Source of the DNA: Candidatus Lloydbacteria bacterium | Lineage (GTDB): Bacteria > Patescibacteriota > Minisyncoccia > Phycocordibacterales > UBA6899 | DNA: 64,000 nucleotides | Direction: 5' to 3' | NCBI GenBank assembly: GCA_043719805.1 | Contig: JAYSTI010000055.1 | Coordinates: 2,760 to 66,759, forward strand | Shown here: positions 17,096 through 60,984 of the stretch, one piece after another | How positions within the stretch are numbered: position 1 is the stretch's first letter | How the letters are laid out: the number at the start of each line of letters is the position of its first letter | The notes under the pieces: model-generated | The model's database searches: none | Told to the model about the DNA's origin: nothing | The model's input: the letters and a program-made list of their open reading frames with translations, nothing else | Translations under genes and position numbers: made by a program

Positions 17096-17107
17096 AAATA
17101 GTTTTAG

Positions 17108-18250
17108 CTATGGAACGTCGTCAAATATTTTTCTTTCCTTTGCGACGTCATTCAAAAATTCCATGAGTATTGCGGTGATGGGGACCGCGAGAATAATGCC
17201 AAGGAAACCGGCCATTTTTGCGCCAACCACTAATGCGATAATGACCAGTACGGGGGGAATGCCGACTATCTTACGCACGACCTCAGGATAGATGACATGG
17301 CTTTCAATCTGCTGGATGACAAAATAAATCGCCATCACGATGAGTGCGGCATTCACGCCGGGGGCAACTGCGAGTGCGTGCGCGAGAGGGTTGATGCCGT
17401 TGACGAAAGCGAGAGAGACCGCAGGAATCGCAGCGAGTATCGGACCGAAGACGGGGATGAGTTCAAACATCATCGCGATGACGGCTAAAAAGAGCGCGGA
17501 CGGTATGCCGAGAATCGTCATAATGAGAAAGACAAGGACTCCGACAACGACGCCAAGCATCATTTGCCCCTGAGCCCATAACCCAATCTTTGCCTGTGAG
17601 CGCTTCCAGAGATCAACAACATACGACCGCGACTTTACCGGAGAAATGAGGCGTAAGAAATTCTCAATTCCACGCTCCTGCGACGAAAGATAAAACGAGA
17701 GCACGATGATAAGTATGAAAGAGAGCACGCCACCAAAGAAGATACTTGCGGAATGAAGTGCTCCCCCACCTTCAATACTACTCTTAAAAATATCCAGAAT
17801 GTTCGCACTCTCAAGTAGGCCTTTCTGCAATTCAGCTGTCTGCGGAACAAGCACGCCTGCAGTAACGTCGGTCGTGGCCGGGCCGGTCATAGAAAAAATA
17901 CCTGATGTGTCGATGACTCCGGGAAGCGTGCGCACCAGCTGACTCACGTCAGTGATAATGGCGGGAACAAAAAAGTAAAAGACCCCGATAAGCGAGAGCG
18001 CGCCAAAGCCGTATACCATAACGAGTGCAAGTAGCCGCGGAATATGCTTTTCAATTAGCGGCACCTTTTTTTTCAAAAGGAAGTGCACTGCCGGCTCAAT
18101 GGCTGACGCGAGCACGATGGCCGTAAGCACAATCAACACGACGTCCCGCAAAAACCAGGCGAGCGCAAAAAGCACCATGATAAAGATCGTGCGCACAATG
18201 GTTCCTGTGGAAATATGAATATGGGAGGCGGTGTCCTCTATTTTCTTCAT
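17108..18250 (-). CDS. AI-2E family transporter (PerM/UPF0118)
   Basis: A polytopic membrane protein of the length and topology typical of AI-2E permeases. Confidence 0.75.
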   Translation of the reverse strand: MKKIEDTASHIHISTGTIVRTIFIMVLFALAWFLRDVVLIVLTAIVLASAIEPAVHFLLKKKVPLIEKHIPRLLALVMVYGFGALSLIGVFYFFVPAIITDVSQLVRTLPGVIDTSGIFSMTGPATTDVTAGVLVPQTAELQKGLLESANILDIFKSSIEGGGALHSASIFFGGVLSFILIIVLSFYLSSQERGIENFLRLISPVKSRSYVVDLWKRSQAKIGLWAQGQMMLGVVVGVLVFLIMTILGIPSALFLAVIAMMFELIPVFGPILAAIPAVSLAFVNGINPLAHALAVAPGVNAALIVMAIYFVIQQIESHVIYPEVVRKIVGIPPVLVIIALVVGAKMAGFLGIILAVPITAILMEFLNDVAKERKIFDDVP

Positions 18251-18369
18251 TTGTCCATCATAGCATCAGAAGAGTGGAGACTCAATTAAGCGCACGGTGG
18301 ATGCTTTTTGCCACCCGGCAGCCACACAAAGAAGAGCGGCTTCTTCCGGTCGGCAAGCAAAGGTATGTG

Positions 18370-19641
18370 CTACAACTTAAGGAGCTCAAGGAACTTTTTG
18401 TCCTCCTTCCATGGACCGATAAGCGCCAGGTTTAGATGTTCGGTCACAAATATCTCTTTTGCCACGCGCAAGATATCTTTTGCGGTTACCTTGCGTATTT
18501 GCACCACCAAATCCTCGGGGGTGTTCATCTTATTGCGCAATATCTCCTGAAAACCAAAGAATTCAGCAATTTCATCCGAGGATTCGAGTCCGAGCATAAG
18601 CCTCCCTGCCATCATGTCCTTTGCTTTTTGTAGCTCAATCTCAGGTACGAGGTCGGTCTTCAGACGCTTCAGCTCGGCAATTATTGCCGCGACGGCCTCA
18701 AGTGCGCGCTCGTTGACCACGCCGGCGGAAGCCGCGAACATTCCGTGGTCGGTAAATGAATCGTTCGCTGCGCGAACATAATAACCCAGGCCCATCTCCG
18801 TGCGCACTTTTTGAAAGAGGCGCGAGCTCATTCCCCCACCCAGCACTGCGCTCATCACCCCGAGGATGGGATATGATTTATGCATCAGCGAAAAACTCCG
18901 AACACCGACAATGAGATGCGTCTGGTCAGACTCTTTATATTTCACGAGTACGGCGGGTTGTGATTGCGTATCTACGACCGGAAGTTTTGAATATTTCTTC
19001 ACCTTCTTAAGACTCGCAAAATGCTTCTTAATGGACGACTCTACTTTTTTCACATTAAATTTTCCCGTAACAACAAGCATCGTTGCGGACGGGACGTAGT
19101 GCATCGTACGGTACGCAACAAAATCCGCACGCGTGAATGTCTTGACCAACTCTTTGGGGCCAGCTATTTCCCAGCCGGCCGGCTGATCGCCGTATGCCAA
19201 TGACATGAAGAGGTCGCCCACCTTTCGCATCGGCATGTCCTCATACATATCTATCTCACCGATGATTGCACCACGCTCCTGTTCGATGTCCTCTTCTCTG
19301 AGGAGTGAATTGCAATATACATCGGAAATGAGGTCGAGCGCATTGGGAAGGTGGTCGGCGGCGACCTTTACGTAGTAGCCCGTATATTCATGTCCCGTAA
19401 ATGCATTGTATTCAGCACCCATGCCGTCGAGCTCGTGGCTGATGATGAGCTGATTGGGACGATTCGAAGTTCCCTTGAAGCACATATGCTCCAGAAAATG
19501 CGAAATGCCATTCTTCTCTTTCGTCTCATATTTTGAGCCGGTTTCCACCAACACAAGCGCGGTGGCAGTGCGTTGGTCATTCATCGGCACCAGAAGTAAC
19601 TTCATTCCGTTGGCGAGTTTTTTTATCGTTGGTTTTTTCAT
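18370..19641 (-). CDS. Peptidase M16 family (insulinase-like zinc protease)
   Basis: Inverted zincin motif HFLEHM in GISHFLEHMCFKGT. Start taken at MKKPTIKK. Confidence 0.8.
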   Translation of the reverse strand: MKKPTIKKLANGMKLLLVPMNDQRTATALVLVETGSKYETKEKNGISHFLEHMCFKGTSNRPNQLIISHELDGMGAEYNAFTGHEYTGYYVKVAADHLPNALDLISDVYCNSLLREEDIEQERGAIIGEIDMYEDMPMRKVGDLFMSLAYGDQPAGWEIAGPKELVKTFTRADFVAYRTMHYVPSATMLVVTGKFNVKKVESSIKKHFASLKKVKKYSKLPVVDTQSQPAVLVKYKESDQTHLIVGVRSFSLMHKSYPILGVMSAVLGGGMSSRLFQKVRTEMGLGYYVRAANDSFTDHGMFAASAGVVNERALEAVAAIIAELKRLKTDLVPEIELQKAKDMMAGRLMLGLESSDEIAEFFGFQEILRNKMNTPEDLVVQIRKVTAKDILRVAKEIFVTEHLNLALIGPWKEDKKFLELLKL

Positions 19642-19668
19642 AGCGAAATTATAACATGCGAACATCCG

Positions 19669-20889
19669 TTACTGTGGCCGTCGATATATGAGTCTAGCTC
19701 CCACGAAAAGGAGTACCGAGGAAATCGCAATGACAGCAAAGCTCATTCGGACGGCGATCTCCCCTTCACCAACGACGTACACGAGGAGTGCAAAAGCACC
19801 AAGCGCGGCCACCCTCCAAACACCAAATGCCATGTCGCGGAGTATCATCGTCGGAAAAAAGTCTCTTCCCTCTTTTCCCAACGTCTCCATTGTCTCAAGG
19901 TCGATGACGTGCGCGGAAACCCTTGATAGCGGACTCACCACAACAGAGAGGAGCGAAAAAATAATGAACGCGGTGAGATCAAAGCGCAGCGCCATGAACG
20001 ATGCAATGAGCGCAGATGCAAGTGTCGTCCAAAATAAAAATTTCATACGAGAACCTCCGTGACGATATTTCGAAAGTGCCAAAAGCGCCCCAACCGATAG
20101 CGCAGCAAAAACGGTACTGTACAAGCCGACATGCTTTGCACTTCCGAGAAAGATGATAGCGGCGAGTGGCAACGCAACTCGTGAAAAAGCAAAATTTGCT
20201 GAACCTGCAAAAAGATATATTTGTGCATGTCGATTTCTGCGGTCATGGAAAAAATGTTTCAAATCTCCGCGGTCCATCGGCTCCGGCCGATAAGAGCGAA
20301 TATTGCGGAAAAGCGGGATGCCGGAAAGATAGATGAGGGGTGACACCGCAAAGAGCAAGGTGTACGTTCCGACATTGAATACGTCATCAGAAAGATAAAA
20401 CAAAGCCGTTGCGAATGCCGGTGCTGCAAGATTGATGACCTGGTCACCGGCGGAAAGCACGGAAGAATAATAATCGCGTTCGTGATTGATTGTCTCCGTC
20501 AGCTCGAAAGTATGCAAGGTCAGCCAATACAAACCGAGCCCGAAGCCGTTCGTGAACATAAACATGAGCGCATCCATCGTCGTCACGTTGCCGTAGAGGA
20601 ACAGAAAACTCGCACAGAGTGCGACAAAGGCTGCAACATACCCCCACTTCATGTTGAGGCGATACCAGGACGCGACGGCACCGACCAAGCTAAAACCGAG
20701 CGCGCAGCCGGTGAAATAAAACATCAGTCCGATGACATTGAAGGTTACACTACCAAAACGCTGATAGAGGTATATCTGCACGAACATACCAGTAAGTGAG
20801 CCGACGAATCCGTAGGTCCAATGGAGATAGACCATTGCGCGTACGGCGGGACGCAGGGCACGAAAGTGGCTAATCGTTGTCCTCAGCAT
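19669..20889 (-). CDS. Polytopic membrane protein, MFS-like transporter
   Basis: Approximately 12 predicted TM helices. The family assignment is tentative. Confidence 0.5.
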   Translation of the reverse strand: MLRTTISHFRALRPAVRAMVYLHWTYGFVGSLTGMFVQIYLYQRFGSVTFNVIGLMFYFTGCALGFSLVGAVASWYRLNMKWGYVAAFVALCASFLFLYGNVTTMDALMFMFTNGFGLGLYWLTLHTFELTETINHERDYYSSVLSAGDQVINLAAPAFATALFYLSDDVFNVGTYTLLFAVSPLIYLSGIPLFRNIRSYRPEPMDRGDLKHFFHDRRNRHAQIYLFAGSANFAFSRVALPLAAIIFLGSAKHVGLYSTVFAALSVGALLALSKYRHGGSRMKFLFWTTLASALIASFMALRFDLTAFIIFSLLSVVVSPLSRVSAHVIDLETMETLGKEGRDFFPTMILRDMAFGVWRVAALGAFALLVYVVGEGEIAVRMSFAVIAISSVLLFVGARLIYRRPQ

Positions 20890-20932
20890 GCGCCCATATT
20901 AACACAAACGACCCGTTTGGGCCGTGCAGTGT

Positions 20933-22276
20933 TTATCCGCGGAATTTTTGCAAAAGGTCTGCAATGGCGATGCGTTCCTGGGTTCCGGTATCACGATTGC
21001 GGAGTGTCACGGTGTTGAGCAATGCGGGATTCTCTCCGAGGGTGTCGAAGTCGATGGTCACGCACCATGGAGTCCCTATTTCGTCCTGCCTGCGATAGCG
21101 CTTGCCGATGTTGCCGTTGTCATCAAAGCTCACACGACCGAGAGCCTTCTTGAGCTCCGCATATACTTCGCGAGCCTTGGCGACGAGTTCCGGTTTATTT
21201 TTGAGCAATGGAAATACTGCGGCGAGCACGGGGGCGACATCGGCATTCAACTTGAGGTACACGCGCTTTTCGCCTCCCATCTCGTCCTCGGTGTATGCCT
21301 CACTTAAGACAGCGAGTATCGTACGCCCGACGCCGAGTGACGGCTCAATGACGTGTGGCAAAAACTTTTCCTTCTTTTCTTCATCAAAATATTCTAAGTT
21401 CTGCTTACTCCCCTCCTGATGACTGCGGAGGTCGAAATCGGTACGATAGGCGAGACCGTAAAGTTCTTTGCGTCCGAACGGAAAATCATATTCGAAATCA
21501 ACCGTCCGCTCTGAATAATGCGCTCGGTCGCCATCGGCGACTTCAAGCTCGTACACGTGGCCTTTGTCGATTCCCAGTGCTTCGATAAATTTCCACATCT
21601 CCAGTCGCCATGTCTCAAAATGTTCCTTCCAAGTATCGGGGTGCACAAAATATTCAACTTCCATCTGCTCTAGCTCGCGCACACGAAAAATAAAATCACG
21701 CGGAGCAATCTCATTCCTAAATGCTTTCCCTATCTGGCCAAGGCCGAACGGAAGTTTCGGATGAAATGAATCAACAACATTCTTATAATTCACGAACATC
21801 CCACCGGCAGTTTCAGGACGGAGATACGTCACACTGCCCTCACCCTCAGTTGCGCCGACGTTCGTCTTAAACATCATGTTGAACTGACGTTCTTCGCCGA
21901 GTGCGCCACCGCATTCCGGACATTTTGCCTTATCGGCAAGATGGTCTGCGCGGAATCGTTTTTTGCATTTCGTACACTCAACCAGCGGGTCAGAAAATCC
22001 TCCGACATGCCCGGATGTGACCCAAGCCTGTGGATTCATCAGGATTGCCGCATCGATTCCGTACATGTCCTCACGGTCGTCGACGAACATCTTCCACCAC
22101 AAATTTTCGATATTCTTTTTGAGTGTCACGCCTAACGGGCCGTAGTCCCATGTTCCCGCGAGCCCACCGTAAATCTCCGAGCCTTGATAGACAAAACCGC
22201 GGCGTTTGCAAAGTGCGATGATTGCCTCCATTTTTTCATTTGGCTGACTCTTTGGTTGTTTTTTTTCTTCAGACAT
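20933..22276 (-). CDS. glyQS: Glycyl-tRNA synthetase, class II dimeric (archaeal/eukaryote-type GlyQS)
   Basis: RRGFVYQGSEIYGGLAGTWDYGPLG with class II motifs. The protein is about 447 aa. Confidence 0.9.
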   Translation of the reverse strand: MSEEKKQPKSQPNEKMEAIIALCKRRGFVYQGSEIYGGLAGTWDYGPLGVTLKKNIENLWWKMFVDDREDMYGIDAAILMNPQAWVTSGHVGGFSDPLVECTKCKKRFRADHLADKAKCPECGGALGEERQFNMMFKTNVGATEGEGSVTYLRPETAGGMFVNYKNVVDSFHPKLPFGLGQIGKAFRNEIAPRDFIFRVRELEQMEVEYFVHPDTWKEHFETWRLEMWKFIEALGIDKGHVYELEVADGDRAHYSERTVDFEYDFPFGRKELYGLAYRTDFDLRSHQEGSKQNLEYFDEEKKEKFLPHVIEPSLGVGRTILAVLSEAYTEDEMGGEKRVYLKLNADVAPVLAAVFPLLKNKPELVAKAREVYAELKKALGRVSFDDNGNIGKRYRRQDEIGTPWCVTIDFDTLGENPALLNTVTLRNRDTGTQERIAIADLLQKFRG

Positions 22277-22302
22277 ATTTTTCTATCCTACAGGAGCAGT
22301 GG

Positions 22303-24237
22303 CTACTCGACAACCGAACCGGCAAACATCGGCGCCCTCGGATCGGTGGAGAGCTCTGTCGTCACATCCTTGGCAGCTTTCATTATCGTCGCATTTGTGA
22401 AGGAATCAAGCGCAGTAAACTCTATGCCACTCACAATTACCGGCGTTTTTGCGACCTGCGATAGACTCGGCATGAGGAGCACCTGGAAAGCGACCTCGCG
22501 TGGGGGCTTTGCAATACCCGTCCCCGCCGGAATGCTCCCGGGAACCCACACAACTTCGTTTGTTGTCGGATTGTAAGATATGTTTTCCGACGCCGGGAAT
22601 GCCGCACCGTACCACTTCACGTAAGAAGGAAGAATTCCTCGGACGCGTCCGTCTACGATATTATTTGAGGTGTTCACGATGCTCCAAATGATTGTGTAGG
22701 TCGTTTCCCGTTCCACCTTTGGTGGAATTGGCCCTGAGTTGGCAAATGGGCCGTCATAATACACCCCGCGCGCCACAAACTGTGCCTCCGATGACATGCG
22801 TACTGTTTGCGACAAGACAGTCTTTATTTCTTCAGGAACCTTTGTCGGATCATCGGACGGACGTTTTCCGCGCACCGTCACCTCGGCGGTAATTTCAGGG
22901 TTTGTAATTACTTTATTGCCGGATACTGCCGGAAGCGGGCTGAGCAAAAATGTCACCGTGCCGGACTCCCCGGATTCCAGAACGGACAAGGACGTGTCTC
23001 CGCGTTCATCCCAAAAAACGGTGTTATCAATGGAACGATAAAATCCTCCTTTTGTCGCACCAATTGACGAGCGGTCAAGCACCGTTCCACGAAGTTTTAC
23101 TTCAATCTGCGCATTGGTGATTCTTGTCGGCAAGTTGTTCCGCCACGTAATAACTCCGTCGATGCGCTGGCCGTATGCAGCGATCGCCTCACCGGCAGGC
23201 TTACCATTTATCAAAAGTGAAATGCCGATAAACGGGCGCTTCACGGTGATACCAGAAACGACTTTTCCGTAAAATGCCGATATTTCGCGCTCAGTCTTGT
23301 CGCTCCCAACTCCAATATTTGTGTGAAACACTTTCTGCTGCGTATCAGACCCCTCAAGAATTCCATGAAGCGCAACGTTAAATTCCCCCGTCGGACTAAG
23401 TGTGCCGACGCGCCAAATATTATTTCCAAAGGTTGGCTTTGGGTCGGCGCTAGTGAAGGTAAATCCTTGCGGGTATTCAACGGTAATAAAAACATCGCGT
23501 AGCGGCATAACGGTATTAGAAATAGCACTAATCGACAGATCAAGGCGTTGCCCGGCGTTTATTTCTTTGAGCGTAGTCACAACAAGGTTTATTGGCGCAG
23601 CAAGCAGTCGTACGGGGCGCAGCTCTTCTTTTGTGAGAATGGAGCTGACTCCCTCAAAACGATACTCAAGTACTGCGCGAATATCTTTTTCTTCATTTTC
23701 CTCGCCAAGAAAAATTGCTTTTCCGCGAAACTCCACCGATTCTCCAGACTTAATTGTCCCAAGAACCTTCTTTTGGTCATGCATATCCTTATCGGGATTG
23801 TTGCCGTCGCGCGTTCCGGACGGATAAAGAATGGCGAGATTGGCGTATTCGAGTCCGACGCGATTTTGATTAGTGATATGTACCACAATATCCGCAGGCG
23901 CTCCGGGGGCAACTCCAACCGGTGTATCGAAGGTAATAAAAATATTCTTGTCTGAAAGCTGACGAAGCGGATCAAAATATTGATACAGGAGGTAAAGGAC
24001 GGAAGAGGCGGTAGTAAGCACTGCGAGTGCGACAATTACCTTCAAAAACGTATCAACGCGAGGTCTATGCGTGCGCTCTTTCCTCTCGGTTATAATTTCG
24101 GTGTCGCCCCAGTCATTTTCCACATCGACGCGTGAAGGGGAAAGTTCCGCAAATTTTTCGCTCGCCTTCTCTTCTCCCGGTTTGTACAACCCGCGCTTCA
24201 GGCGTTCCAGGTGGCTTTTGTCATACTCAGTATCCAT
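22303..24237 (-). CDS. Large membrane-anchored extracytoplasmic protein of unknown function (single N-terminal TM, about 540-aa external region)
   Basis: TM segment VIVALAVLTTASSVLYLLY followed by a long beta-rich region. Start taken at MDTEYDK, and the ORF overlaps the recO 3' end if a longer start is used. Confidence 0.55.
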   Translation of the reverse strand: MDTEYDKSHLERLKRGLYKPGEEKASEKFAELSPSRVDVENDWGDTEIITERKERTHRPRVDTFLKVIVALAVLTTASSVLYLLYQYFDPLRQLSDKNIFITFDTPVGVAPGAPADIVVHITNQNRVGLEYANLAILYPSGTRDGNNPDKDMHDQKKVLGTIKSGESVEFRGKAIFLGEENEEKDIRAVLEYRFEGVSSILTKEELRPVRLLAAPINLVVTTLKEINAGQRLDLSISAISNTVMPLRDVFITVEYPQGFTFTSADPKPTFGNNIWRVGTLSPTGEFNVALHGILEGSDTQQKVFHTNIGVGSDKTEREISAFYGKVVSGITVKRPFIGISLLINGKPAGEAIAAYGQRIDGVITWRNNLPTRITNAQIEVKLRGTVLDRSSIGATKGGFYRSIDNTVFWDERGDTSLSVLESGESGTVTFLLSPLPAVSGNKVITNPEITAEVTVRGKRPSDDPTKVPEEIKTVLSQTVRMSSEAQFVARGVYYDGPFANSGPIPPKVERETTYTIIWSIVNTSNNIVDGRVRGILPSYVKWYGAAFPASENISYNPTTNEVVWVPGSIPAGTGIAKPPREVAFQVLLMPSLSQVAKTPVIVSGIEFTALDSFTNATIMKAAKDVTTELSTDPRAPMFAGSVVE

Positions 24238-24292
24238 GCTTAAAAAATTATACCACGTGCGGCAAAAGATGTTGAATAGGCAGGAGCGAAAA

Positions 24293-24880
24293 CTATAATT
24301 GTGTTGAGTCGAGCGCACGATTCACTCCGGCTACTATTTCACTCCGCAGCGGACGAATCTTTTCGAGGTCATCCGCAGAAAATGTCACTCCGGCGAATAC
24401 GGGAACGAGTTCTTTTTGCTCGCCCCAGTAACCGAGCGCGTCGAGTAATCGCACAACAAGTAGTAATTCTGCGTCCTTCTGTGATTCACGGTCGAAGACG
24501 GTCGAAAGTAGTGTAAGCCCTTTTAAGAGGTCATCGAACAGCAACTCGTGACGCTCTTCTCCTTGAATAAGGCGCCGCGCAAGGTGAAGGTGCTCCGCCG
24601 CAATACGACGCCTCCCTACGTCCGACCAGAGGTGGCGAAACGAGGAAATCGGTGTTGCGGAAATAAGTTTCCACCCGTATTTTCCGCGAATAAGGTCGAC
24701 CTGTGCATGGGAAAATAATTGCAGTGCATAACGAAGCCGAGAGCGCGACTCACGTATACTCCGCGCATGTGCGACCACGAACCCAAGGTCGCGGGTATAG
24801 CAATACAGCAGGCTGTCTCCCTCGCCGTGTGGGCGCGTGCCAAGGATTATCGCTTCGGTGTGGTAGATATGGTGGGACAC
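24293..24880 (-). CDS. recO: DNA repair protein RecO (short form)
   Basis: N-terminal OB region EAIILGTRPHGEGDSLLYCYTRDLGFVVAHARSIRESRSRLRYALQLFSH matches the RecO pattern. Confidence 0.6.
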   Translation of the reverse strand: MSHHIYHTEAIILGTRPHGEGDSLLYCYTRDLGFVVAHARSIRESRSRLRYALQLFSHAQVDLIRGKYGWKLISATPISSFRHLWSDVGRRRIAAEHLHLARRLIQGEERHELLFDDLLKGLTLLSTVFDRESQKDAELLLVVRLLDALGYWGEQKELVPVFAGVTFSADDLEKIRPLRSEIVAGVNRALDSTQL

Positions 24881-24949
24881 AAGAAGATTATATCACTGTT
24901 CAGCTGGGTCTTGTTGTACGTCTTCGTCGATTCCCGCACCAAGAATGAC

Positions 24950-27900
24950 CTAGGACTTTGTGATGACGAGTGCATCGCCGGCACTAAAGCTATCGGCGCC
25001 GATGATGGAAGTGGCTTCCGTGCGATATTTTTCGAGGAGGGCAAACTGTTCCTTTGGTGCGGAGACGGTGATGCGGTCGCTCGGATTGAGGCCGGCCTTC
25101 TTGCGCATGTCCTGAATGGTGCGGACGAGGTCACGGAGCTGGCCCTCTTCTTTGAGTTCCGGCGTAAGCGCAATATTGAGCGACACGAGCAATCCCGCAT
25201 TTTCACTTAATTTATGCTCACTGTTGTTTTCGGCGGTCACACGAATCTCTTCGTCAAAGATGACCTGCTTTACGTTCACTTCGTCACGGATGATGCCGAG
25301 CATTTCATCACTGATGGGTTTTTTGTCTGCAGTCTTGTATGAAAGTTCGGAAAGCGGTTGTCGCACCTTCATCCCGGCCTCGGCGCGAAGCGCGAGTGCA
25401 GCTTCGACAATTTTTCTGGTGGTCTCCATCTCATCAAGAATACTACTCGCGGCAACACCGACATCGGACCAACTTTCAAGATGGATGCTCTCTTTCTTCT
25501 CTTCAATCGTGAGGCGCTGATAGAGGTCCTCGGCAATGAACGGCATGAAGGGTGCAATGAGTTTCGAGAATTGAAGCAATATCCATCCCGTTGTTTCTGC
25601 TGCCGCCGCACGATCATCCGCGTCATCAGATTTAAAGCGGTCGCGGGAGCGGCGCAGGTACCACGTCGAAAGATCATCCAGGAACGGCATGATGGGGCGC
25701 GTAGCACGGTCGAGCTCATGTGTGTCGAGATGATGCGTGACTTCGGCGTGCATTTCAAACCAGCGCGCAACAATCCAACGATCAAGCACATTCCTCGACT
25801 CAGGCTGAAGTCGCGTGATGATGGAATCTTTCGCATACATCTCAAGGAAAGAGCGGACGTTGTCGAGGCGAATGGTGATCTTCTTGTACACCTCATCAAC
25901 GCCGAGCACGGAAAAACGCAATTCTTCGCCTCGTACAATGGGCGAGTTTATCATGTAGAATCGCAGTGCATCTGCGCCGTATTTCTCCGCGACTTCCATC
26001 GGGTCGGGATAATTCTTTAGCCTCTTCGACATCTTTGCCCCATCTTCAGCAAGGATAAGCCCGGTCGTAATGACGCTCTTGAATGCCGCACGATCAAAAA
26101 GTCCGACTGAAAGTATCAGCATCGTGTAGAACCAGCCTCGCGTCTGATCGACCGCCTCGGCAATAAAGTCTGCGGGAAAATTCTTCACGAACATTTTCCC
26201 GTCTGGAGTTGTCTCATCGCCCAAGTAATGAAATTGTGCAAAAGGCATGGAGCCGGACTCAAACCAGCAATCAAAAACTTCCGGGATACGATTCATGGTC
26301 CCTAGCTCGCAAGAGCATTGATAACTCACCTTATCGATATGTGGACGATGATAGTCGAGCTCGTAGCGCTCATTGTGTGGGACGTTCACGAAGGAAAGAG
26401 CACGCACTTCGGCATAATTCACATAATCATCCCCTCCGCGATCGCGCATCTCTGCCGCCTCCTCGTTGGTCGCACCGAGAGCCACGGCCTCCATCATCCA
26501 CGTGCCATACTCATGCGTGACGAGGAGAATATTTTTCCCCTTATACTTCCCTTCAATGTCATAAAGAAATTCAGCAACACGCATGCGCATGTGCTCCATC
26601 GTTTCACCTCCGGGTGGTTCCTTGGTGAACTTCTCAAGCGTGTTCGCAAAGTAGTTACGATACATATCGATATTCTGACCGTTGAAGTCTCCCGTGTTTA
26701 CCTCTGCAATACGCGAATCAACAACAATATCACCCACAGGAATACCGTGGGCCTCCGCGACAATGGCCGCAGTTTCTCTTGTGCGCTGCACGGGCGAAGT
26801 GATGATGAGGTCAAACTTGCGATCTTTCAGCTTCGTTGCAGCAGCCTTCACTTGCGCACGACCCTTTTCAGTCAGATGAATGTCGTCCTCTTCTTTGCAG
26901 CTGATGATGTTCTGCGTATTCGAGTCGGCTTCCCCGTGACGCATGAATGTGTAAGTATTCGCGCTTCCGATGTTTTTTTTAAGGTCGCCCAATGAACCAA
27001 TCACGTCCACTTTGCCGCACTTATTGCATTTCCACACAGGCAAAGGTGCGCCCCAGTAGCGTGAACGTGAGATTGCCCAGTCACGTGCGCCCTCAAGCCA
27101 TTTACCGAAACGTCCGTCGCGAAAATTCTCGGGAATCCAATTGATTTCCTTGTTCTCTTCGATGAGGCGGGGCTTGAGCGCGGTCACATTTACGAACCAC
27201 GACGACGCTGCATAATTTAAAAGCGGGGTATCGCAGCGCCAGCAATGAGGATAAGAGTGGGTAAGATTTTCTTTTGCAAAAAAAGTTCCATGCTCCTGAA
27301 GATACTTGAGCACGGCAATGTCAGTTGTGAGTCGGACTTTGTCGTCGTCGCTTTTTGGTTTGACGTGCATGCCAGCAAAATCTTTTACCTCAGACTTCAT
27401 CGTGCCGTCCATCTTGACGTGCTGAATCATTGGAAGCTTTAATTTTTTCGCAAGCTCCATGTCTTCTTCGCCGAACGCCGGTGCTTCGTGAACAATACCC
27501 GTGCCGCTCTCGACGGTCACAAAGTCTGCGCCGACAACCTTCCATCCGTTCTCACGATTCTCAAGCTTTTCATCGGACGTGTAATAATCAAAAAGCGGTT
27601 TATACGAAAGTCCGATGAACTCCTTGCCCTTTCGCTCCTCCACAACTTCGTGATCTTTGTCTTTGAATACGCGCGTCACAAGATCCTTCGCAACAACGTA
27701 GCGCTTGCCCGAATAGAGCACAATGGCATACACAAACGCCGGATTGACGGCGACGGCAACATTGCCCGGCAATGTCCACGGTGTCGTCGTCCAAGCGATA
27801 AGATGCGTACCCGGCTCTAGGACAAGCTCAAATGTGACGTAGACGGAAATATCTTTGATGTCCTTGTACCCCTGTGAAACCTCAGAAGCGGCGAGTGTTG

Positions 27901-28465
27901 TCTCGCATCGCGGACAAATGTGCATCGATTTGAATCCATCGTAAATCAGTTTTTTGGCGTGAAGTGTTTTGAACGCCCACCAGACACTCTCGGTGTACGA
28001 GGAGTCCATTGTTTTGTATGCATGCTCCATGTCCACGAAGCGCCCCATGCGCGGGACAATACTTTTCCACTCTTTGTCATACGTCATGACACTTTCTTTT
28101 GCCTTCTGATTGAATGCGCCGATGCCGTAGGCCTCGATATCACTCTTTTGTTTTAGTCCCAACTCTTTCTCAACGAGATTCTCAATCGGCAACCCATGGC
28201 AGTCCCACCCCCACTCTCGGCGTACGTAGCGACCGCGCATCGTCTGATAACGCGGAATGAGGTCTTTGATGGTTCCCTGGAGGAGATGCCCGTGGTGAGG
28301 GAGCCCTGTCGCGAACGGAGGTCCGTCATAAAAAACGTAGGATTCTTTCCCTTCGTTCTGCTTCAGTGACTTCTCAAAGATATTCCGCTCTTTCCAAAGT
28401 GCGAGGACGGCCTTCTCGCGTTCACTGATCGATTGTTTCTTGTCATTTATCGGCGTTTCATCCAT
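24950..28465 (-). CDS. ileS: Isoleucyl-tRNA synthetase (type 2) carrying an inserted histidine-phosphatase domain (RHGEADSN...H) of about 200 aa
   Basis: HIGH motif (PHHGHLL), CP1 editing domain, WAISRSRYWGAPLPVW and KMSKRL. The insertion FMRHGEADSN...TSPVQRTRETA...LLVTHEYG lies between the CNKCG and CSCELG zinc-knuckle halves. Confidence 0.9.
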   Translation of the reverse strand: MDETPINDKKQSISEREKAVLALWKERNIFEKSLKQNEGKESYVFYDGPPFATGLPHHGHLLQGTIKDLIPRYQTMRGRYVRREWGWDCHGLPIENLVEKELGLKQKSDIEAYGIGAFNQKAKESVMTYDKEWKSIVPRMGRFVDMEHAYKTMDSSYTESVWWAFKTLHAKKLIYDGFKSMHICPRCETTLAASEVSQGYKDIKDISVYVTFELVLEPGTHLIAWTTTPWTLPGNVAVAVNPAFVYAIVLYSGKRYVVAKDLVTRVFKDKDHEVVEERKGKEFIGLSYKPLFDYYTSDEKLENRENGWKVVGADFVTVESGTGIVHEAPAFGEEDMELAKKLKLPMIQHVKMDGTMKSEVKDFAGMHVKPKSDDDKVRLTTDIAVLKYLQEHGTFFAKENLTHSYPHCWRCDTPLLNYAASSWFVNVTALKPRLIEENKEINWIPENFRDGRFGKWLEGARDWAISRSRYWGAPLPVWKCNKCGKVDVIGSLGDLKKNIGSANTYTFMRHGEADSNTQNIISCKEEDDIHLTEKGRAQVKAAATKLKDRKFDLIITSPVQRTRETAAIVAEAHGIPVGDIVVDSRIAEVNTGDFNGQNIDMYRNYFANTLEKFTKEPPGGETMEHMRMRVAEFLYDIEGKYKGKNILLVTHEYGTWMMEAVALGATNEEAAEMRDRGGDDYVNYAEVRALSFVNVPHNERYELDYHRPHIDKVSYQCSCELGTMNRIPEVFDCWFESGSMPFAQFHYLGDETTPDGKMFVKNFPADFIAEAVDQTRGWFYTMLILSVGLFDRAAFKSVITTGLILAEDGAKMSKRLKNYPDPMEVAEKYGADALRFYMINSPIVRGEELRFSVLGVDEVYKKITIRLDNVRSFLEMYAKDSIITRLQPESRNVLDRWIVARWFEMHAEVTHHLDTHELDRATRPIMPFLDDLSTWYLRRSRDRFKSDDADDRAAAAETTGWILLQFSKLIAPFMPFIAEDLYQRLTIEEKKESIHLESWSDVGVAASSILDEMETTRKIVEAALALRAEAGMKVRQPLSELSYKTADKKPISDEMLGIIRDEVNVKQVIFDEEIRVTAENNSEHKLSENAGLLVSLNIALTPELKEEGQLRDLVRTIQDMRKKAGLNPSDRITVSAPKEQFALLEKYRTEATSIIGADSFSAGDALVITKS

Positions 28466-28517
28466 AGATAGGGATTATACTATATGTTTTTCCGCTTTGG
28501 AGCAAAAAACAGCAAAA

Positions 28518-28544
28518 ATACGCGCAACATGATGTTGCGCGTAT
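28518..28544 (-). terminator. 27-bp perfect palindrome ATACGCGCAACAT-g-ATGTTGCGCGTAT followed on the minus strand by a T-rich run. Terminator for the hesB-like gene and/or operator upstream of ileS.
   Basis: Read directly from the sequence. The minus-strand downstream sequence is TTTTGCTGTTTTTTGC. Confidence 0.5.
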
Positions 28545-28550
28545 GCATGA

Positions 28551-28889
28551 CTAGCTCTTTGGTATTGCGGCACTTTCTCCGCAACCGCACAGATGCGCAC
28601 CATTCGGGACGACGATGACCTTCTTGGAAGCAAATGCGCCCCCACCGGAATGAATGAGCTCGACTGACGCGTGCTCAAATTCAGGACAGAGTAGGAAGTC
28701 ACACAGAAGCGACATCCCAAAACCCTCTACAAGCGTGTCGCCGGGACCCTGCATGCCGCCCGGAAGAAATTGTGAGGCGATGTCGCCGCAGCCCGCCCGC
28801 ATGTCTTTCACGAGGCGTAGTGGCATCTGATCCTTCGGGACCCGCATCAGAATGTATCGCGCTGCATCTTCCGTGATGAGTAGACTCAT
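28551..28889 (-). CDS. Divergent HesB/IscA-family protein (C-terminal CGCGES)
   Basis: RAGCGDI and C-terminal HLCGCGES. Start taken at MSLLITEDAARYI. Confidence 0.5.
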   Translation of the reverse strand: MSLLITEDAARYILMRVPKDQMPLRLVKDMRAGCGDIASQFLPGGMQGPGDTLVEGFGMSLLCDFLLCPEFEHASVELIHSGGGAFASKKVIVVPNGAHLCGCGESAAIPKS

Positions 28890-28914
28890 GATGACTCCTT
28901 CTGTGTTTGCAATA

Positions 28915-29265
28915 TCAGACGCTGAAACTCGAACCGCAGCCGCAAGTCGAGGCAGCATTGGGATTCGTGATAACGAAGCGCGCATCGAGAAATTCGTCCC
29001 GGTAATCTACCGTCGCACCGTCAAGATACTGCGCACTCATCACATCAATGAGCAAAGTGATGCCGTCTTTTTCGACGAGAACATCGTCGTCGTTCGCGAA
29101 ATCATCAAAGGCAAATCCATATTGAAACCCGGAGCATCCCCCACCGGAGACATAGACACGCAACTTCAGGTTTGGCGTTCCGTCTTCAGCGATCATGTCC
29201 TTCACCTTCGAGAGAGCAGCGTCAGTGAGCGTCACCATCGGCATTGGTCCGTTCATGTGTATCAT
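28915..29265 (-). CDS. Iron-sulfur cluster insertion protein, IscA/ErpA/HesB family
   Basis: [13 protein letters not shown] and C-terminal CGCGSSFSV. Confidence 0.8.
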
Positions 29266-29346
29266 CCTTTTGTACAGAAAACTCTCTCGCTATTCTACGC
29301 ACAACCCCGCAAAAAGAAAACCCCGCGTTCAGGCGGGGCGTATCGG

Positions 29347-30123
29347 TCATTGTTTCATTTCCAACATCATTTTGGCAACGGACTTTTTCAGTCGGCGCTC
29401 AAAACTTTTTCGTGTTCCGTTATTCGTGACGACGGCATGTGCATGCGGGCGTAGAAGGCGGATCTGTTCCTCTGCTTCAGCTTTTCCCAACTCAAGGAAT
29501 TGCGCATACGAGAGCTCGCTATCGCCCGGCTTTTCATTTCTCAGCACGTGGCGAGCGAAACGAACCTTCGGGTCCGCCTCGACATACATGAGACGGAAAG
29601 GATTGTACGCATCACTCATGAGCGTGGTGATGTCGACCAATCGACGAATGCCCTCGATGATGACGCACGTGCAATCATCCCCTGCTTGTGCGACGCGAAA
29701 TTTGACCGCACGCTCGAGCGTGTCTTCACCGAAAAATCGTCGCACTGCGGTCGAGAGCGTCTGCAGGTCGGCAGTACTCGCGCCGTTCGGCCAAACTCCG
29801 CTGTGTTCCGGCATAAACCGTCCGACAAGCCAGTATTCAAACTCGCGAAACTGAATGTAGCAAGCACCTGATGCACCGAGGTCAGAACCGAATGCATGTT
29901 TCAAAATATCGACGAGGTGCGGACCAAGACGATCTCCAAAAAGCGCAGGGGTTTTGTTCTCGCGCAAATGCGGAAAATTTTCAAGGAGTAGTCGATAGAA
30001 TTCGCGCAGTGAATCCGAAAAACGGAATGACGGCGTACCCGGATACCACGCCTTGACCAGGTCGGTAGCTGAACCCTTACCGCTGGACATTTCGCCGGCG
30101 AATCCCAACATCAGTTTTTGCAT
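29347..30123 (-). CDS. P-loop nucleotide kinase, T4 dNMP-kinase-like, long paralog with a C-terminal extension
   Basis: LGFAGEMSSGKGSA Walker A and CVIIEGIRRLVDITTL. It is a paralog of the 32714..33271 gene. Confidence 0.5.
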   Translation of the reverse strand: MQKLMLGFAGEMSSGKGSATDLVKAWYPGTPSFRFSDSLREFYRLLLENFPHLRENKTPALFGDRLGPHLVDILKHAFGSDLGASGACYIQFREFEYWLVGRFMPEHSGVWPNGASTADLQTLSTAVRRFFGEDTLERAVKFRVAQAGDDCTCVIIEGIRRLVDITTLMSDAYNPFRLMYVEADPKVRFARHVLRNEKPGDSELSYAQFLELGKAEAEEQIRLLRPHAHAVVTNNGTRKSFERRLKKSVAKMMLEMKQ

Positions 30124-30192
30124 TACGCGCTCCTGTGTACTTCTTGCTCCATCGTATTGGAATCAGTCTGAAAAACAAGTTGACCGAGGTCA

Positions 30193-31890
30193 TCACATTC
30201 GCTCTGGTGCGGTGATGCCCAAAAGGTCGAGCCCGCGCAGAAGAATACGTGAGGTCATCTGCACAAGAGCGAGCTTGTAGCCCTCGTCGCTGCTTCCTAT
30301 CACCTGACTATTCGCATAAAAGGCGTTAAACTCGCGGGCGAGCTCTATAAGATACGTTGCGATGTGGTGCGGCTCACGGCTCATTTCCGCGCGCAATACC
30401 GCTTCGGGAAAACGTAAAATATATTTATGCAATGAAATGATTTCATCATCGGCCATGCTCGCGACATTCAACTTCTCCCCTCCCGCCTTTGCAAATAGAG
30501 ACTTCGTGCGTGCGTAGGTGTATTGCAAGTACGGGCCGGAGTCCCCCTCGAAGGAGAGCGATTGTTCAAAATCAAAAATGATATCTTTGCCTGCCGCCTG
30601 TCGAAGGATGGAATACTTAATGGCTCCAATCGCGACCTGTTCAGCAATCTCATCTTTTTCCACATCAGAAAATGCACTCGTAAATTTCGTGAGTGCTTTT
30701 TCTTTTGTCTCACCAATGAGCGCCATTGCAGTGATCACGCTACCCGTTCTCGATGACATTTTTCCTGAAGGAAGTCGCAAAATACCATGACCAATATGGA
30801 GCGTCACGCCTGCGATAGCAGGCATTATTTCTTGCATCGCACGAAGAACTACCTTAAAGTAGTCATTTTGCTCATTCGCAGTTATGATAATCGAAATATC
30901 GGGGTGGTATGTATTAAGCTTCCAAAGATTAAGTCCCATCTCCTTTGATTCGTATGTAGGTAGACCCTCTTTGCTTATAAAAACGCGCGTATGTAGCCCG
31001 TTTTTTTGCTCTGAGTAAATGATAGCCCCACCATCTCCTTTCTCAAAAATCCCTTCTTGTACTGCCACAAACACAATTCTCTTTCCGTCCTCCGTTATCT
31101 CACTTTCCCCCTTTGCCACGTCAAAGTTACTTCCAAGGAGTTCGTATATTTCTCCAAGGTGCGCGAGACTCCATTTTTTCCCCTTATCATAGAGTTCATT
31201 AATGACGGGGTCAGATCGCTCGTGAATCTTCTTATTTATTTCTCTTACCTCAAGGGCAACTTCTTCACTTTCTTCCGACATTCTCACTCCATGCGGATAA
31301 GCTTCTCCCAAAAATTCAATGCACGCAAAAACACCTGCATCATGGGACGGCATCTTTTCCCGCAATGCATTCATCCCCCAGACAGCCTTCGCAATATTGA
31401 GCCCCGAATCAGAGTAGTAGTTCATGCGCACAACATCCGCTCCGCTCGCAGCAAAAAGACGTGAGATTGACTCTCCGATTGCATTGCTCATCAAGTGACC
31501 GATGTGAAATGGCTTTAAGACATTCGGGTCGGTGTATTCGACGATGACTTTTTTGCCCTTCAGCCGCTCGTTGTTGCCGTACTTTTCAATCGCGAGCGCG
31601 GCTTCAAGTTCCCGGACGAAATATGCTTTCGAAAGTTTGATATTGATGAACCCTGGACCGGCTATCTCAACCATAGAAATATCCGTATCTTTTTGTGCTT
31701 CAAGTTTCATCTTTATCTCTTCTGCTAGTGCGCGAGGATTCTTGCCCGCCTTTTTCGCACCCGCCATTGCGGCATTCGTCGACCAGTCGCCGTTTACCAT
31801 ATCCGCCGGCCGTTCAACGACAAAAGTCGCCTCGGTAATGCCGAGATCGAGAAGTGCCAAGTCTATGTATTCTCTCAATTTTTGCTCCAT
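30193..31890 (-). CDS. argS: Arginyl-tRNA synthetase
   Basis: HIGH-like PFHIGHLMSNAIGESISRL, the anticodon-binding domain and C-terminus ...GITAPERM. Start taken at MEQKLREYI. Confidence 0.9.
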   Translation of the reverse strand: MEQKLREYIDLALLDLGITEATFVVERPADMVNGDWSTNAAMAGAKKAGKNPRALAEEIKMKLEAQKDTDISMVEIAGPGFINIKLSKAYFVRELEAALAIEKYGNNERLKGKKVIVEYTDPNVLKPFHIGHLMSNAIGESISRLFAASGADVVRMNYYSDSGLNIAKAVWGMNALREKMPSHDAGVFACIEFLGEAYPHGVRMSEESEEVALEVREINKKIHERSDPVINELYDKGKKWSLAHLGEIYELLGSNFDVAKGESEITEDGKRIVFVAVQEGIFEKGDGGAIIYSEQKNGLHTRVFISKEGLPTYESKEMGLNLWKLNTYHPDISIIITANEQNDYFKVVLRAMQEIMPAIAGVTLHIGHGILRLPSGKMSSRTGSVITAMALIGETKEKALTKFTSAFSDVEKDEIAEQVAIGAIKYSILRQAAGKDIIFDFEQSLSFEGDSGPYLQYTYARTKSLFAKAGGEKLNVASMADDEIISLHKYILRFPEAVLRAEMSREPHHIATYLIELAREFNAFYANSQVIGSSDEGYKLALVQMTSRILLRGLDLLGITAPERM

Positions 31891-31952
31891 AATACAGTGA
31901 TAGTAACAGAGCGGCGGGAAAACAAAAAGTCCGACCATTGGTCGGACTGTCA

Positions 31953-32642
31953 TCAGAAAATTTTCTGCTGTTTTAGGTATGCGTAGATCTCCTCGTGGAT
32001 GTCTTCCTCGGAGCGCATGGTCGCGCCGCCATGCATCATGCAATCGATGACCTTCCAACCCTCACTCTTTGCAACCTCAAGATAGGACGCGGACGCCTGA
32101 CGCAAATGCTCGATGTTCGCCTCGTGCAAATCACGCTGCTTCCCTTGGGTATATTCGCGTGCCGCCTTTTTGTCGACAAGCTGCTGTCCGACCTCGGGTG
32201 GAACGTAGAGAAGAATATTCGCGTCCGGATGTGGCAATTCGAGAATTCCATACTCAAGTCCCTTCAACCAATCAATGCACTCCGCGCGCTCTTTGGGATT
32301 AGCAATCTTTCCCGCCTGATGCCCCATATTCGATGAAACATAGCGATTGCTGATGATGATGCCTCCTGCCGCGAGCCACTCACGCATCGCGAAAGATGCA
32401 TCGTAGCGGTCGAGCGCATAAAAGAGCGACGCCTTTTTTGCGCCGATTGTTTCGAGAGCGCCATATTCACCACGAAGATATTTTTCGACAAAATATGCGG
32501 AGGTACTTCCATACTGAGGAAAATCACTAAGCTTCACCTGCTTGCCCTCGCGCACGAGACGTTCAATCAGCATGCGAGACTGTGTCCCCTTTCCGGAGCC
32601 GTCCGTTCCATCAATCACAACGAGTTTTCCGAGCGTACTCAT
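31953..32642 (-). CDS. tmk: Thymidylate kinase
   Basis: LVVIDGTDGSGKGTQSRMLIERL P-loop with typical Tmk length and LID region. Confidence 0.9.
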   Translation of the reverse strand: MSTLGKLVVIDGTDGSGKGTQSRMLIERLVREGKQVKLSDFPQYGSTSAYFVEKYLRGEYGALETIGAKKASLFYALDRYDASFAMREWLAAGGIIISNRYVSSNMGHQAGKIANPKERAECIDWLKGLEYGILELPHPDANILLYVPPEVGQQLVDKKAAREYTQGKQRDLHEANIEHLRQASASYLEVAKSEGWKVIDCMMHGGATMRSEEDIHEEIYAYLKQQKIF

Positions 32643-59781: not shown

Positions 59782-60984
59782 TTAGACGACGAATTCTTTT
59801 TCTACCTCAATCAACCGCTCGTACTTCACCCGCCGTTCTTTTTGCGTCGGTGCGCCGGCTTTTAATCCGTACGCGCCAATACCAACAGCGAGATCCGCAA
59901 TGAAGGAATCCTCAGTCTCCCCCGAGCGATGACTCGCGACCAGCTTCCACCCTGCGTCCCTTGTAAGTCGCACGGTCGCAAACACCTCTGTGAGTGTCCC
60001 CACTTGATTGGGTTTGATAATCATTGCGTTCGCGCGGCTTTCATCAATCATTTCTTTGGTGATTGCGGGATTGGTAACCGTGAGGTCATCTCCAATGATA
60101 AGCGTGCGAGCACCAAGCTCAGCGGTGATGCGTCGGAACGCAGGGAAATCTTTCTCATCAAACGGGTCTTCAATGCTCCTCAGGTGAAATTTATTGACAA
60201 GGTTTTCATAAACATCAAAAAGTTCGTCACTACTATGTGGTGCACCCTCAAGGATATATTTCCCGTCATGGAAAAATTCTGATGCCGCCGCATCAATTGC
60301 GAGAAACGCCGCGGCCTCGGCCCCCATCGCTTCGCTTAACAGTGCGAACGGTGTTTCAATGCCATTCAAATTTGGTGAATATCCACCTTCATCGCCCATG
60401 GGAACTTCGCCGTAACGCTCCTTAATAAGCGTACCGAGTGTTTCAAATATCGCATTTGCTTTTGCGTATGATTCCGAGGGGCCCGCAGCACCAACTGCGA
60501 CAATGTATTCCTGAAACGGAAGCCGAAATGATGCATGCGCTCCGCCGTTCAACATGTTCATGTAAAGACGAGGGAGCGACGGGGTAAATCCGCCGATATC
60601 CGCGAGACATTTCCACACAGGAACTCCTCTCTCTTGCGCAGCAAGTCGCATGGCAGCAACGGAAACTCCAAGCATCGCATTCGCACCGAGGTGCGTCTTC
60701 GTCGGAGTACCGTCAATCGCGATGAGTTTCTCGTCGATTGCGGTGGGGTCAAGCTGCGCACCACGAAGTGCATCATTGATGAGCGTATTCACGTTTGCGA
60801 TTGCAGTGGTGACACCTCTTCCGTCTGCATCACGCAACTCACATGCCTCGCGCGTTCCCGCGCTTTTTCCCGAGGGAACAGAAGAACAAGCGGAGAATTC
60901 TCCGCTTGTCATCGTCACTTCTAAGGTCGGACTTCCTCGTGAATCAAGAACTTCTTTCGCCCGTACTCCGGTGATTATCGCCAT
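59782..60984 (-). CDS. eno: Enolase
   Basis: AKEVLDSRGSPTLEV and SHRSGETEDSFIADLAV. Confidence 0.95.
   Translation of the reverse strand: MAIITGVRAKEVLDSRGSPTLEVTMTSGEFSACSSVPSGKSAGTREACELRDADGRGVTTAIANVNTLINDALRGAQLDPTAIDEKLIAIDGTPTKTHLGANAMLGVSVAAMRLAAQERGVPVWKCLADIGGFTPSLPRLYMNMLNGGAHASFRLPFQEYIVAVGAAGPSESYAKANAIFETLGTLIKERYGEVPMGDEGGYSPNLNGIETPFALLSEAMGAEAAAFLAIDAAASEFFHDGKYILEGAPHSSDELFDVYENLVNKFHLRSIEDPFDEKDFPAFRRITAELGARTLIIGDDLTVTNPAITKEMIDESRANAMIIKPNQVGTLTEVFATVRLTRDAGWKLVASHRSGETEDSFIADLAVGIGAYGLKAGAPTQKERRVKYERLIEVEKEFVV

Follow-up and report, generated by a model that had tools for sequence, protein, structure and literature searches.

1. Introduction

The aminoacyl-tRNA synthetases (aaRSs) rank among the best-studied enzymes, and the closest described systems to the one analyzed here include isoleucyl-tRNA synthetases (IleRSs). 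A domain-level survey of ~1500 IleRS sequences published in 2026 recorded only INS and ZBD variations and no phosphatase, and a 2026 preprint on PmIleRS2 mentions the zinc ions of that enzyme's zinc fingers. Among curated protein families, NCBIfam dedicates a model to IleRS carrying a GNAT domain but offers none for a phosphatase architecture. Here, we describe an IleRS encoded in a stretch of 64,000 nucleotides from a Candidatus Lloydbacteria bacterium (assembly GCA_043719805.1, contig JAYSTI010000055.1, positions 2,760 to 66,759; hereafter, the window), in which a predicted histidine phosphatase domain interrupts the synthetase.

No earlier description appears to exist of an IleRS whose catalytic core houses a complete second enzyme. 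Full-text literature searches found no paper describing an aaRS with a histidine phosphatase domain, in line with what an earlier note on this DNA, made from the sequence alone, had supposed. The architecture is visible in precomputed Pfam annotations and is thus undescribed rather than undetectable. Our favored reading, to which we assign a probability of roughly 0.7, is that one polypeptide carries two catalytic units, i.e., an IleRS and a nested phosphatase.

2. A Phosphatase Domain between the Zinc-Knuckle Halves of IleRS

The earlier note had proposed a 1171-aa IleRS carrying a branch-1 histidine phosphatase domain at 26370–26970, placed cleanly between the two halves of the zinc knuckle. 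The Pfam family His_Phos_1 (PF00300) matches residues 507–671 with 124.1 bits, far above its gathering threshold of 21.7, and the excised segment alone matches the same family with an E-value of 2.8e-37. The boundaries found here, 26363–26971, agree with those proposed. In the alignment with the type-2 IleRS structure 8c8v, residue 498 corresponds to chain residue 477 and residue 702 to chain residue 485, placing ~200 residues where the known enzyme has ~7. The insert is flanked by C480-x-x-C483 and C717-x-C719, and all four cysteines are invariant in 116 homologues; the alignment and these cysteines together bear out the clean placement. The equivalent knuckle cysteines presumably bind zinc in the Thermus thermophilus IleRS. 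By its sequence, the insert is therefore a predicted branch-1 histidine phosphatase domain of ~200 residues; the Cys4 zinc knuckle whose halves enclose it belongs to the second Rossmann half. Its location probably corresponds to the element named CP3 in yeast IleRS (PMC11685878). The features of the gene are as follows:

24950–28465, minus strand: ileS open reading frame (ORF), 1171 aa, ATG start; predicted type-2 isoleucyl-tRNA synthetase with an internal histidine phosphatase domain
26972–28465, minus strand: IleRS N-terminal part, residues 1–498, aligning with 8c8v residues 7–477
28286–28300, minus strand: HIGH signature PHHGH, residues 56–60; P56, H57, G59, and H60 invariant in 116 homologues
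27017–27028, minus strand: first half of the Cys4 zinc knuckle, C480-N-K-C483 (CNKC); both cysteines invariant in 116 sequences
26363–26971, minus strand: inserted segment, residues 499–701; predicted complete branch-1 histidine phosphatase domain with short linkers
26453–26947, minus strand: Pfam His_Phos_1 match, residues 507–671, E-value 7.1e-36, 124 bits
26933–26941, minus strand: RHG motif with R509, the presumed nucleophile H510, and G511; invariant in 116 IleRS homologues
26783–26785, minus strand: R561, second phosphate-binding arginine by prediction; invariant
26702–26704, minus strand: E588, presumed general acid; invariant
26507–26515, minus strand: H651-E652-Y653, second catalytic histidine by prediction and the HEY signature typical of the inserted form; H651 invariant
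26309–26317, minus strand: second half of the zinc knuckle, C717-S-C719 (CSC); both cysteines invariant
24953–26362, minus strand: IleRS C-terminal part, residues 702–1171, aligning with 8c8v residues 485–849 and beyond
26021–26035, minus strand: KMSKS-type signature KMSKR, residues 811–815; conserved in 116 homologues

The host protein has every mark of a complete type-2 IleRS, as judged from its sequence: the HIGH, KMSKR, and editing motifs and the anticodon-binding and C-terminal domains are all intact. The whole protein scores 869.1 bits against the curated equivalog model TIGR00392 (ileS), whose cut-off is 621.4. Residues 1–498 run from the first Rossmann half through the CP1/editing domain and into the second Rossmann half as far as the first zinc-knuckle half. 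The C-terminal part comprises the rest of the Rossmann fold with KMSKR, Anticodon_1 (residues 895–1039), and DUF5915 (residues 1071–1140). The editing motif TTTPWT is found at residues 226–231 and is conserved in the 116 homologues, so that the canonical motifs listed in the earlier note are preserved in an intact frame. The Pfam tRNA-synt_1 match is broken into two stretches that flank His_Phos_1. In HMMER searches, the best match in the Protein Data Bank is Priestia megaterium IleRS2 (8c8v; E-value 2.9e-211), and assignment to type 2 follows from E-values of ~1e-210 for 8c8v and 1ile versus 4e-90 for Staphylococcus aureus IleRS1, together with a C-terminus formed by DUF5915 rather than by a zinc-binding domain. 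An AlphaFold2 model of the full-length protein, built from the 116-sequence alignment, has a mean pLDDT of 91.2 and a pTM of 0.83, with a pLDDT above 90 throughout the insert, and Foldseek ranks IleRS2 and yeast IleRS at the top for this model.

The inserted domain contains all of the motifs quoted in the earlier note, i.e., FMRHGEADSN (R509-H510-G511, N516), LTEKG, ITSPVQRTRETA (S557, R561), and LLVTHE (H651), as well as E588. Eleven of its residues, among them the catalytic Arg, His, and Glu, are invariant in the 116 sequences (R509, H510, G511, N516, T532, G535, S557, R561, E588, R629, and H651); E652 and Y653 are conserved in at least 90%. The branch-1 catalytic core is complete, with the nucleophile H510, the second arginine R561, the acidic donor E588, and the second histidine H651. 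All relatives checked, whether free-standing, fused, or multi-copy, retain the Arg and His of the RHG motif, with G511 replaced by Ala in three. Each full-length copy in these relatives likewise preserves R561, E588, and H651. When the insert is modeled alone with AlphaFold, the pLDDT is 93.6, and the domain shows the alpha/beta fold of its family. The phosphatase domain is thus complete on the sequence level and apparently active.

3. Conservation and Selection

Whether the insertion is lineage-wide, a question raised in the earlier note, is answered by the homologues. PF00300 occupies the same site in 120/120 best homologue clusters (54–100% identity), drawn from NCBI, JGI, ENA, and Logan assemblies, the complete members of which are 1145–1250 aa long. 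The named carriers among these best homologues are Lloydbacteria, Yonathbacteria, Pacebacteria, Paceibacterota, and the Parcubacteria group. In a whole-protein genome scan that returned 16 loci, the closest species-representative genome was Candidatus Lloydbacteria RIFCSPHIGHO2_02_FULL_50_18, with 80% identity. In the databases, the homologues bear no more specific name than ‘class I tRNA ligase family protein’ or, in other cases, ‘hypothetical protein’.

In a comparison with the homologue L036 (92% identity), the insert has a dN/dS of 0.062, the N-terminal part 0.020, and the C-terminal part 0.063; these values are qualitative only, as dS is near saturation. The insert does not stand out in composition from the rest of the gene (GC 0.512 versus 0.507; GC3 0.581 versus 0.587), and no repeats were found flanking it. 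A recent mobile insertion is thus unsupported, with neither flanking repeats nor a composition shift. The probability that the segment reflects artefact or decay, be it as the product of chimeric assembly, as part of a pseudogene, or as a structural spacer devoid of catalysis, is negligible. The identical insertion site in all 120 clusters from four archives excludes misassembly, and the intact reading frame, the confidently predicted fold, the invariant catalytic residues, the low dN/dS of the insert, and its matching composition rule out a pseudogene. That the protein is functional, as the earlier note argued, is thus supported, while the two activities it named are predicted from sequence.

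We also considered whether IleRS is encoded by split genes in some relatives, as many matches of ~650–700 aa start at the phosphatase domain. This was rejected: P0141 is frameshifted and P0239 is cut by a contig edge. In P0141 (L034 1–300, a Logan-assembled, low-quality contig), two frameshifts lie just 5′ of the phosphatase domain and yield a false ‘phosphatase + IleRS C-half’ gene call. The many database entries of this kind are probably artefacts or contig-edge fragments.

4. Relationship to Known Histidine Phosphatases

The solved structures nearest to the model of the insert are small metabolite phosphatases, namely PspA, GpgP, PhoE, and CobC, and Foldseek concurs. At the level of curated families, the insert matches none. 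Its best NCBIfam match is the archaeal-type dPGM model, with a sub-cut-off score of 98 bits. The phosphoglycerate mutase (PGM) models are unmatched (pgm_1, 34.1 bits versus a cut-off of 81.7; dPGM_arch, 97.8–99.6 versus 225; and all PRK gpmA models far below their cut-offs), as are ribazole_cobC (86–91 versus 162.9), PspA (67–71 versus 350), and SixA (33 versus 74.5). The stand-alone homologues described below likewise fall under every curated cut-off.

Substrate binding specific to the dPGM mutase involves a Tyr that follows the catalytic Glu, the ‘NK’ Lys, the ‘WRR’ Arg-Arg, and the ‘HGN’ Asn. When aligned with the Schizosaccharomyces pombe dPGM (1fzt), ERYYG corresponds to EVNTG in the insert, NK to NI, WRRSY to a gap followed by KF, and HGNS to HEYG. 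A classical dPGM was rejected on account of these non-conserved mutase positions and the sub-cut-off scores. Thus, the label ‘PGM-like’ used in the earlier note is valid at the superfamily level and fails at the level of the mutase, whose specific residues are missing. As far as its sequence allows classification, the domain is a distinct subfamily of the phosphatase type.

The net charge of the domain tracks the host proteome: it is −9 here and ranges from −11 to +20 among relatives, with values up to +20 in Lys-rich lineages. No conserved basic surface that would be a sign of RNA binding was found from the net charges across relatives, and the tracking of the proteome argues against such a surface.

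5. Multi-Copy Forms, Other Sites, and Other Partners

A search with the insert against 1.84 billion representatives clustered at 50% identity gave 39 matches at E ≤ 1e-30 and 1350 at E ≤ 1e-10. The 150 best representatives were mapped with the N- and C-terminal parts of IleRS, and the site positions given here come from phmmer mapping; global pairwise alignment of the multi-copy proteins mis-paired their domains. Of the 150, 104 have IleRS flanks, and in almost all of these the domain occupies the same site.

More than one copy occurs in seven metagenomic IleRSs among these 150. Two copies stand in tandem at the canonical site in P0247, P0196, P0220, and P0264. P0178, a complete protein of 1419 aa, has none there and instead has copies near residues ~745–762 and ~879–890 (in the numbering of the window protein), and P0152 has a canonical copy in addition to copies near those same two positions. 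P0129 has one copy near residue ~434 and three at the canonical site, the fourth copy being cut by the contig end. Pfam confirmed these architectures, and no copy that aligns over the whole domain has lost the catalytic Arg, His, or Glu. No fusion at the adjacent N-terminus of IleRS was found among the matches. Covalent coupling to IleRS has thus arisen repeatedly, with three sites used besides the canonical one and with some copies in tandem. The internal insertions at four sites and the tandem multiplication, as opposed to N-terminal fusion, suggest that the coupling was selected.

The domain is also joined to two other partners. P0241 is an ArgRS with the phosphatase domain at its C-terminus; at its locus, seen in two independent assemblies (L032 and L033, 5001–7070), the order is smpB, argS-phosphatase, recO, and ileS is not adjacent. 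P0236 is a TsaC (Sua5/YrdC) protein with the phosphatase domain at its C-terminus, a fusion found in four clusters of 52–65% identity. In Patescibacteria, the fusion partners of TsaC/YrdC, which acts in t6A synthesis (P0236, P0392–P0508), include His_Phos_1, MGMT, TruB, 2H phosphoesterase/CPDase, Nudix, Pur_DNA_glyco, and GNAT, the commonest being MGMT (PF01035).

6. Stand-Alone Relatives and Gene Order

Free-standing forms of the phosphatase are also found in Paceibacteria: the nearest relatives of the ArgRS-fused domain are ~120 clusters of stand-alone proteins of ~190 aa. In five of the seven contexts sampled, a stand-alone gene lies directly upstream of an insert-free ileS (961–976 aa). 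Loci with this pairing are L007–L010 (Staskawiczbacteria), L027, L028, L029, and L030; the spacing between the two genes runs from a 4-nt overlap to 49 nt, with overlaps being frequent, and the usual order is argS, phosphatase, ileS, a small ORF in some cases, and recO. The window has the order argS, ileS with the insert, and recO, i.e., the same anchors as the stand-alone loci, and contains no further His_Phos gene in its 64 kb. The two anchors are:

30193–32058, minus strand: argS, upstream synteny anchor, without a phosphatase domain
24293–24880, minus strand: recO (RecO_N), downstream neighbor and synteny anchor

The ileS loci of Peregrinibacteria, Woesebacteria, and Gracilibacteria have neither the insert nor a phosphatase gene within 6 kb. 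Since the insert or an upstream gene is present at ileS in Paceibacteria and absent at the loci of those three groups, the phosphatase is a Paceibacteria trait tied to ileS. Sister Paceibacteria encode the phosphatase upstream of an insert-free ileS, so the partnership with IleRS is probably older than the fusion. From this observed synteny, we infer the direction of change, namely that the insert is the internalized form of the stand-alone ~190-aa phosphatase.

Several further features of the neighborhood were recorded. Between argS and ileS (28551–30123, minus strand), where relatives hold the stand-alone phosphatase, the window has three ORFs: a 258-aa ORF with a weak match to the hypothetical-protein model PRK08356; an IscA/HesB-type Fe-S assembly gene (28915–29265); and an overlapping ORF of 144 aa (28551–28985) that ends in CGCGES and resembles a second, degenerate HesB copy. 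A 671-aa ORF (22303–24318, minus strand) overlaps the end of recO by 26 nt and has no Pfam, NCBIfam, or PADLOC match; in related loci, the gene after recO in the same direction gives only faint CLIPPER/DUF7619 matches. Four aaRS genes on the same strand lie within 17 kb (15647–32058), encoding MetRS (15647–17095), GlyRS (20933–22276), IleRS (24950–28465), and ArgRS (30193–32058), and only the IleRS has the phosphatase domain. The genes for an AI-2E transporter, a peptidase M16, GlyRS, a large unannotated protein, and RecO are also mutual neighbors in L030 and L032, in a different order. ARAGORN found no tRNA or tmRNA gene in the 64-kb window.

7. Possible Functions of the Nested Phosphatase

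In the mechanism that we favor, the zinc site would clamp both ends of the phosphatase domain, leaving the synthetase fold undisturbed, and both activities would be retained. By the chemistry of the family, R509, R561, and H651 would hold a phosphomonoester, H510 would accept the phosphoryl group, and E588 would protonate the leaving group, after which water would free the phosphate. The domain is somewhat more likely than not to act as a small-molecule phosphomonoesterase kept beside IleRS and in stoichiometric amounts with it. A small-molecule substrate is favored since the nearest characterized relatives act on small phospho-metabolites, and a copy number as high as four in one IleRS is easier to reconcile with a flux-type activity than with repair of tRNA. 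The dPGM mutase reaction and a direct action on tRNA are both less likely. As for the substrate itself, a nucleotide-like or ribose-5′-phosphate-type compound tied to the adenylation cycle is a tentative candidate, a 3-carbon phospho-acid of the phosphoglycerate or phosphoserine type a more doubtful one, and some other small molecule would be a distinctly unlikely choice.

Several observations weigh against this reading. No curated phosphatase family cut-off is reached, so specificity is not transferable from a characterized relative. Two of the seven free-standing homologues do not adjoin ileS (P0248 lies beside secA and P0144 between unannotated genes), and Paceibacterial operons mix unrelated genes, recO being the example here. 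TsaC is joined to many unrelated domains in Patescibacteria, which makes fusion alone weak evidence of shared function. Neighbor-joining trees of the domain and of the host IleRS are star-like and carry no support values; they establish neither the direction of change from gene to insert nor the number of independent events.

The domain could instead have nothing to do with aminoacylation and be a hidden glycolytic enzyme, i.e., the PGM of the organism or another lower-glycolysis phosphatase or mutase that first shared a transcript with ileS and later, in a streamlined genome, became fused to it. Such an enzyme would account for the apparent PGM gap in some Parcubacteria: Jaffe et al. (2020; PMC7304191) report PGM to be apparently lacking from several shallow Parcubacteria clades and ‘possibly too divergent’ to detect. 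The window encodes, in adjacent minus-strand genes, enolase (59782–60984) and phosphoenolpyruvate (PEP) synthase/pyruvate, water dikinase (60991–63405; 1130 bits), so a source of 2-phosphoglycerate is needed, and no PGM turned up among the window ORFs scanned with Pfam. PEP synthase is an AMP-linked PEP enzyme. The archaeal-type dPGM model is the best NCBIfam match of the insert, the nearest solved structures act on 3-phosphoglycerate-like substrates, and UniRef names the stand-alone homologue P0384 ‘Phosphoglycerate mutase’. However, the insert lies well under the cut-off of every PGM model and lacks the mutase residues discussed in Section 4, other Parcubacteria are depicted with the cofactor-independent GpmI, and a glycolytic role leaves unexplained why the domain was inserted internally at four sites and multiplied when a simple N-terminal fusion would have served. 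We consider it unlikely. A rather doubtful reading, if a less remote one, is that the phosphatase acts on something bound at the synthetase, either by removing a 2′- or 3′-phosphate from the CCA end of damaged or toxin-modified tRNA or by hydrolyzing PPi or a nucleotide by-product and so pulling aminoacylation forward. The fusion partners found (IleRS, ArgRS, and TsaC) are all enzymes of the tRNA world that convert ATP to an adenylate and PPi; covalent coupling to IleRS arose repeatedly at several sites; and, in the same phylum, TsaC also has fusions with domains that act on RNA ends and nucleotides, namely 2H phosphoesterase and Nudix. The value of these fusions is lessened by the promiscuity of TsaC, most often joined to MGMT, and by the position of argS directly upstream of the phosphatase gene, from which the ArgRS fusion is explicable. 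The acidic character of the domain in this lineage, with a charge that follows the proteome, also counts against it, and up to four copies per IleRS are hard to square with repair of tRNA ends. To our knowledge, no branch-1 member acts on RNA ends.

A protein phosphatase is a very unlikely alternative, in which the domain would dephosphorylate IleRS or a partner, e.g., to offset the action of a Ser/Thr/His kinase, a class that includes the HipA-type toxins with aaRSs as their phosphorylation targets. Its location in cis would suit self-protection. The operon contexts (L007–L010 and L027–L030) contain no kinase gene, and the closest structures are metabolite phosphatases and neither SixA, whose model also lies far from reach, nor PGAM5. 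PADLOC gave no defense-system match, so that a link to a defense system was likewise rejected.

A wider form of the accessory idea is a tentative possibility: the phosphatase module may be a dedicated accessory of adenylate-forming tRNA enzymes in Paceibacteria, with its chemistry lying within the aminoacylation cycle. Repeated recruitment would have placed such a module upstream of ileS, within IleRS (four or more sites, as many as four copies), and on the C-termini of ArgRS and TsaC. It might clear a phosphorylated tRNA 3′ end or hydrolyze PPi or a nucleotide by-product, thereby letting charging go forward in cells with an unusual AMP/PPi economy. If true, the catalytic domains coupled to aaRSs would gain a new class beside the editing domains.

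Whichever function applies, a nested enzyme conserved across a large uncultivated bacterial class and reinvented at several sites is an architecture that would surprise aaRS specialists. The phosphatase-IleRS may signal a hitherto unknown chemistry linked to tRNA charging, or it may expose a metabolic enzyme concealed in a gene to which pipelines give no label other than tRNA ligase. The latter case, if true, would alter how metabolism is reconstructed for Parcubacteria, a group in which some clades reportedly lack PGM. For protein engineering, it indicates that the zinc knuckle of a class Ia synthetase tolerates the insertion of a 200-residue domain.

8. Comparison with Known Systems

As a whole, the synthetase resembles the type-2 (eukaryote/archaeon-like, mupirocin-resistant) enzymes Priestia megaterium IleRS2 (8c8v) and Thermus thermophilus IleRS (1ile), with a Foldseek E-value of 3.7e-89 and a target-normalized TM-score of 0.81. 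HIGH, the KMSKS-type motif, the editing motifs, the Cys4 knuckle, and the type-2 C-terminal domains are found in both. Unlike the known enzymes, which have a ~7-residue linker in the zinc knuckle, the IleRS described here has ~200 extra residues that are predicted to form a full enzyme domain.

The insert has the same R-H/R/E/H set as the small branch-1 phosphatases, i.e., the phosphoserine phosphatase PspA (4ij5), the glucosyl-3-phosphoglycerate phosphatase Rv2419c (6s2q/4pz9), PhoE (1h2e), HFP (9mmh), and CobC (6e4b/6nru), and shares their short cap region. The identity to them is only 20–28%, the insert is set apart by its HEY motif and by the loop that follows N516, and, unlike these proteins, the phosphatase is embedded in an aaRS or, in relatives, encoded upstream of one. 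With dPGM, it shares the superfamily and the phospho-histidine chemistry; it differs in scores far under the family cut-offs and in the Tyr, Lys, Arg-Arg, and HGN positions, which are not conserved.

A curated precedent for an IleRS bearing an extra enzymatic domain is NF040702 (ileS_w_GNAT). In that family, the domain is a GNAT, and the window protein, with 306 bits versus a cut-off of 1999, is not a member. Finally, in contrast to end-to-end fusions, the domain described here is nested inside the catalytic fold of its partner, and that partner is an aminoacyl-tRNA synthetase.

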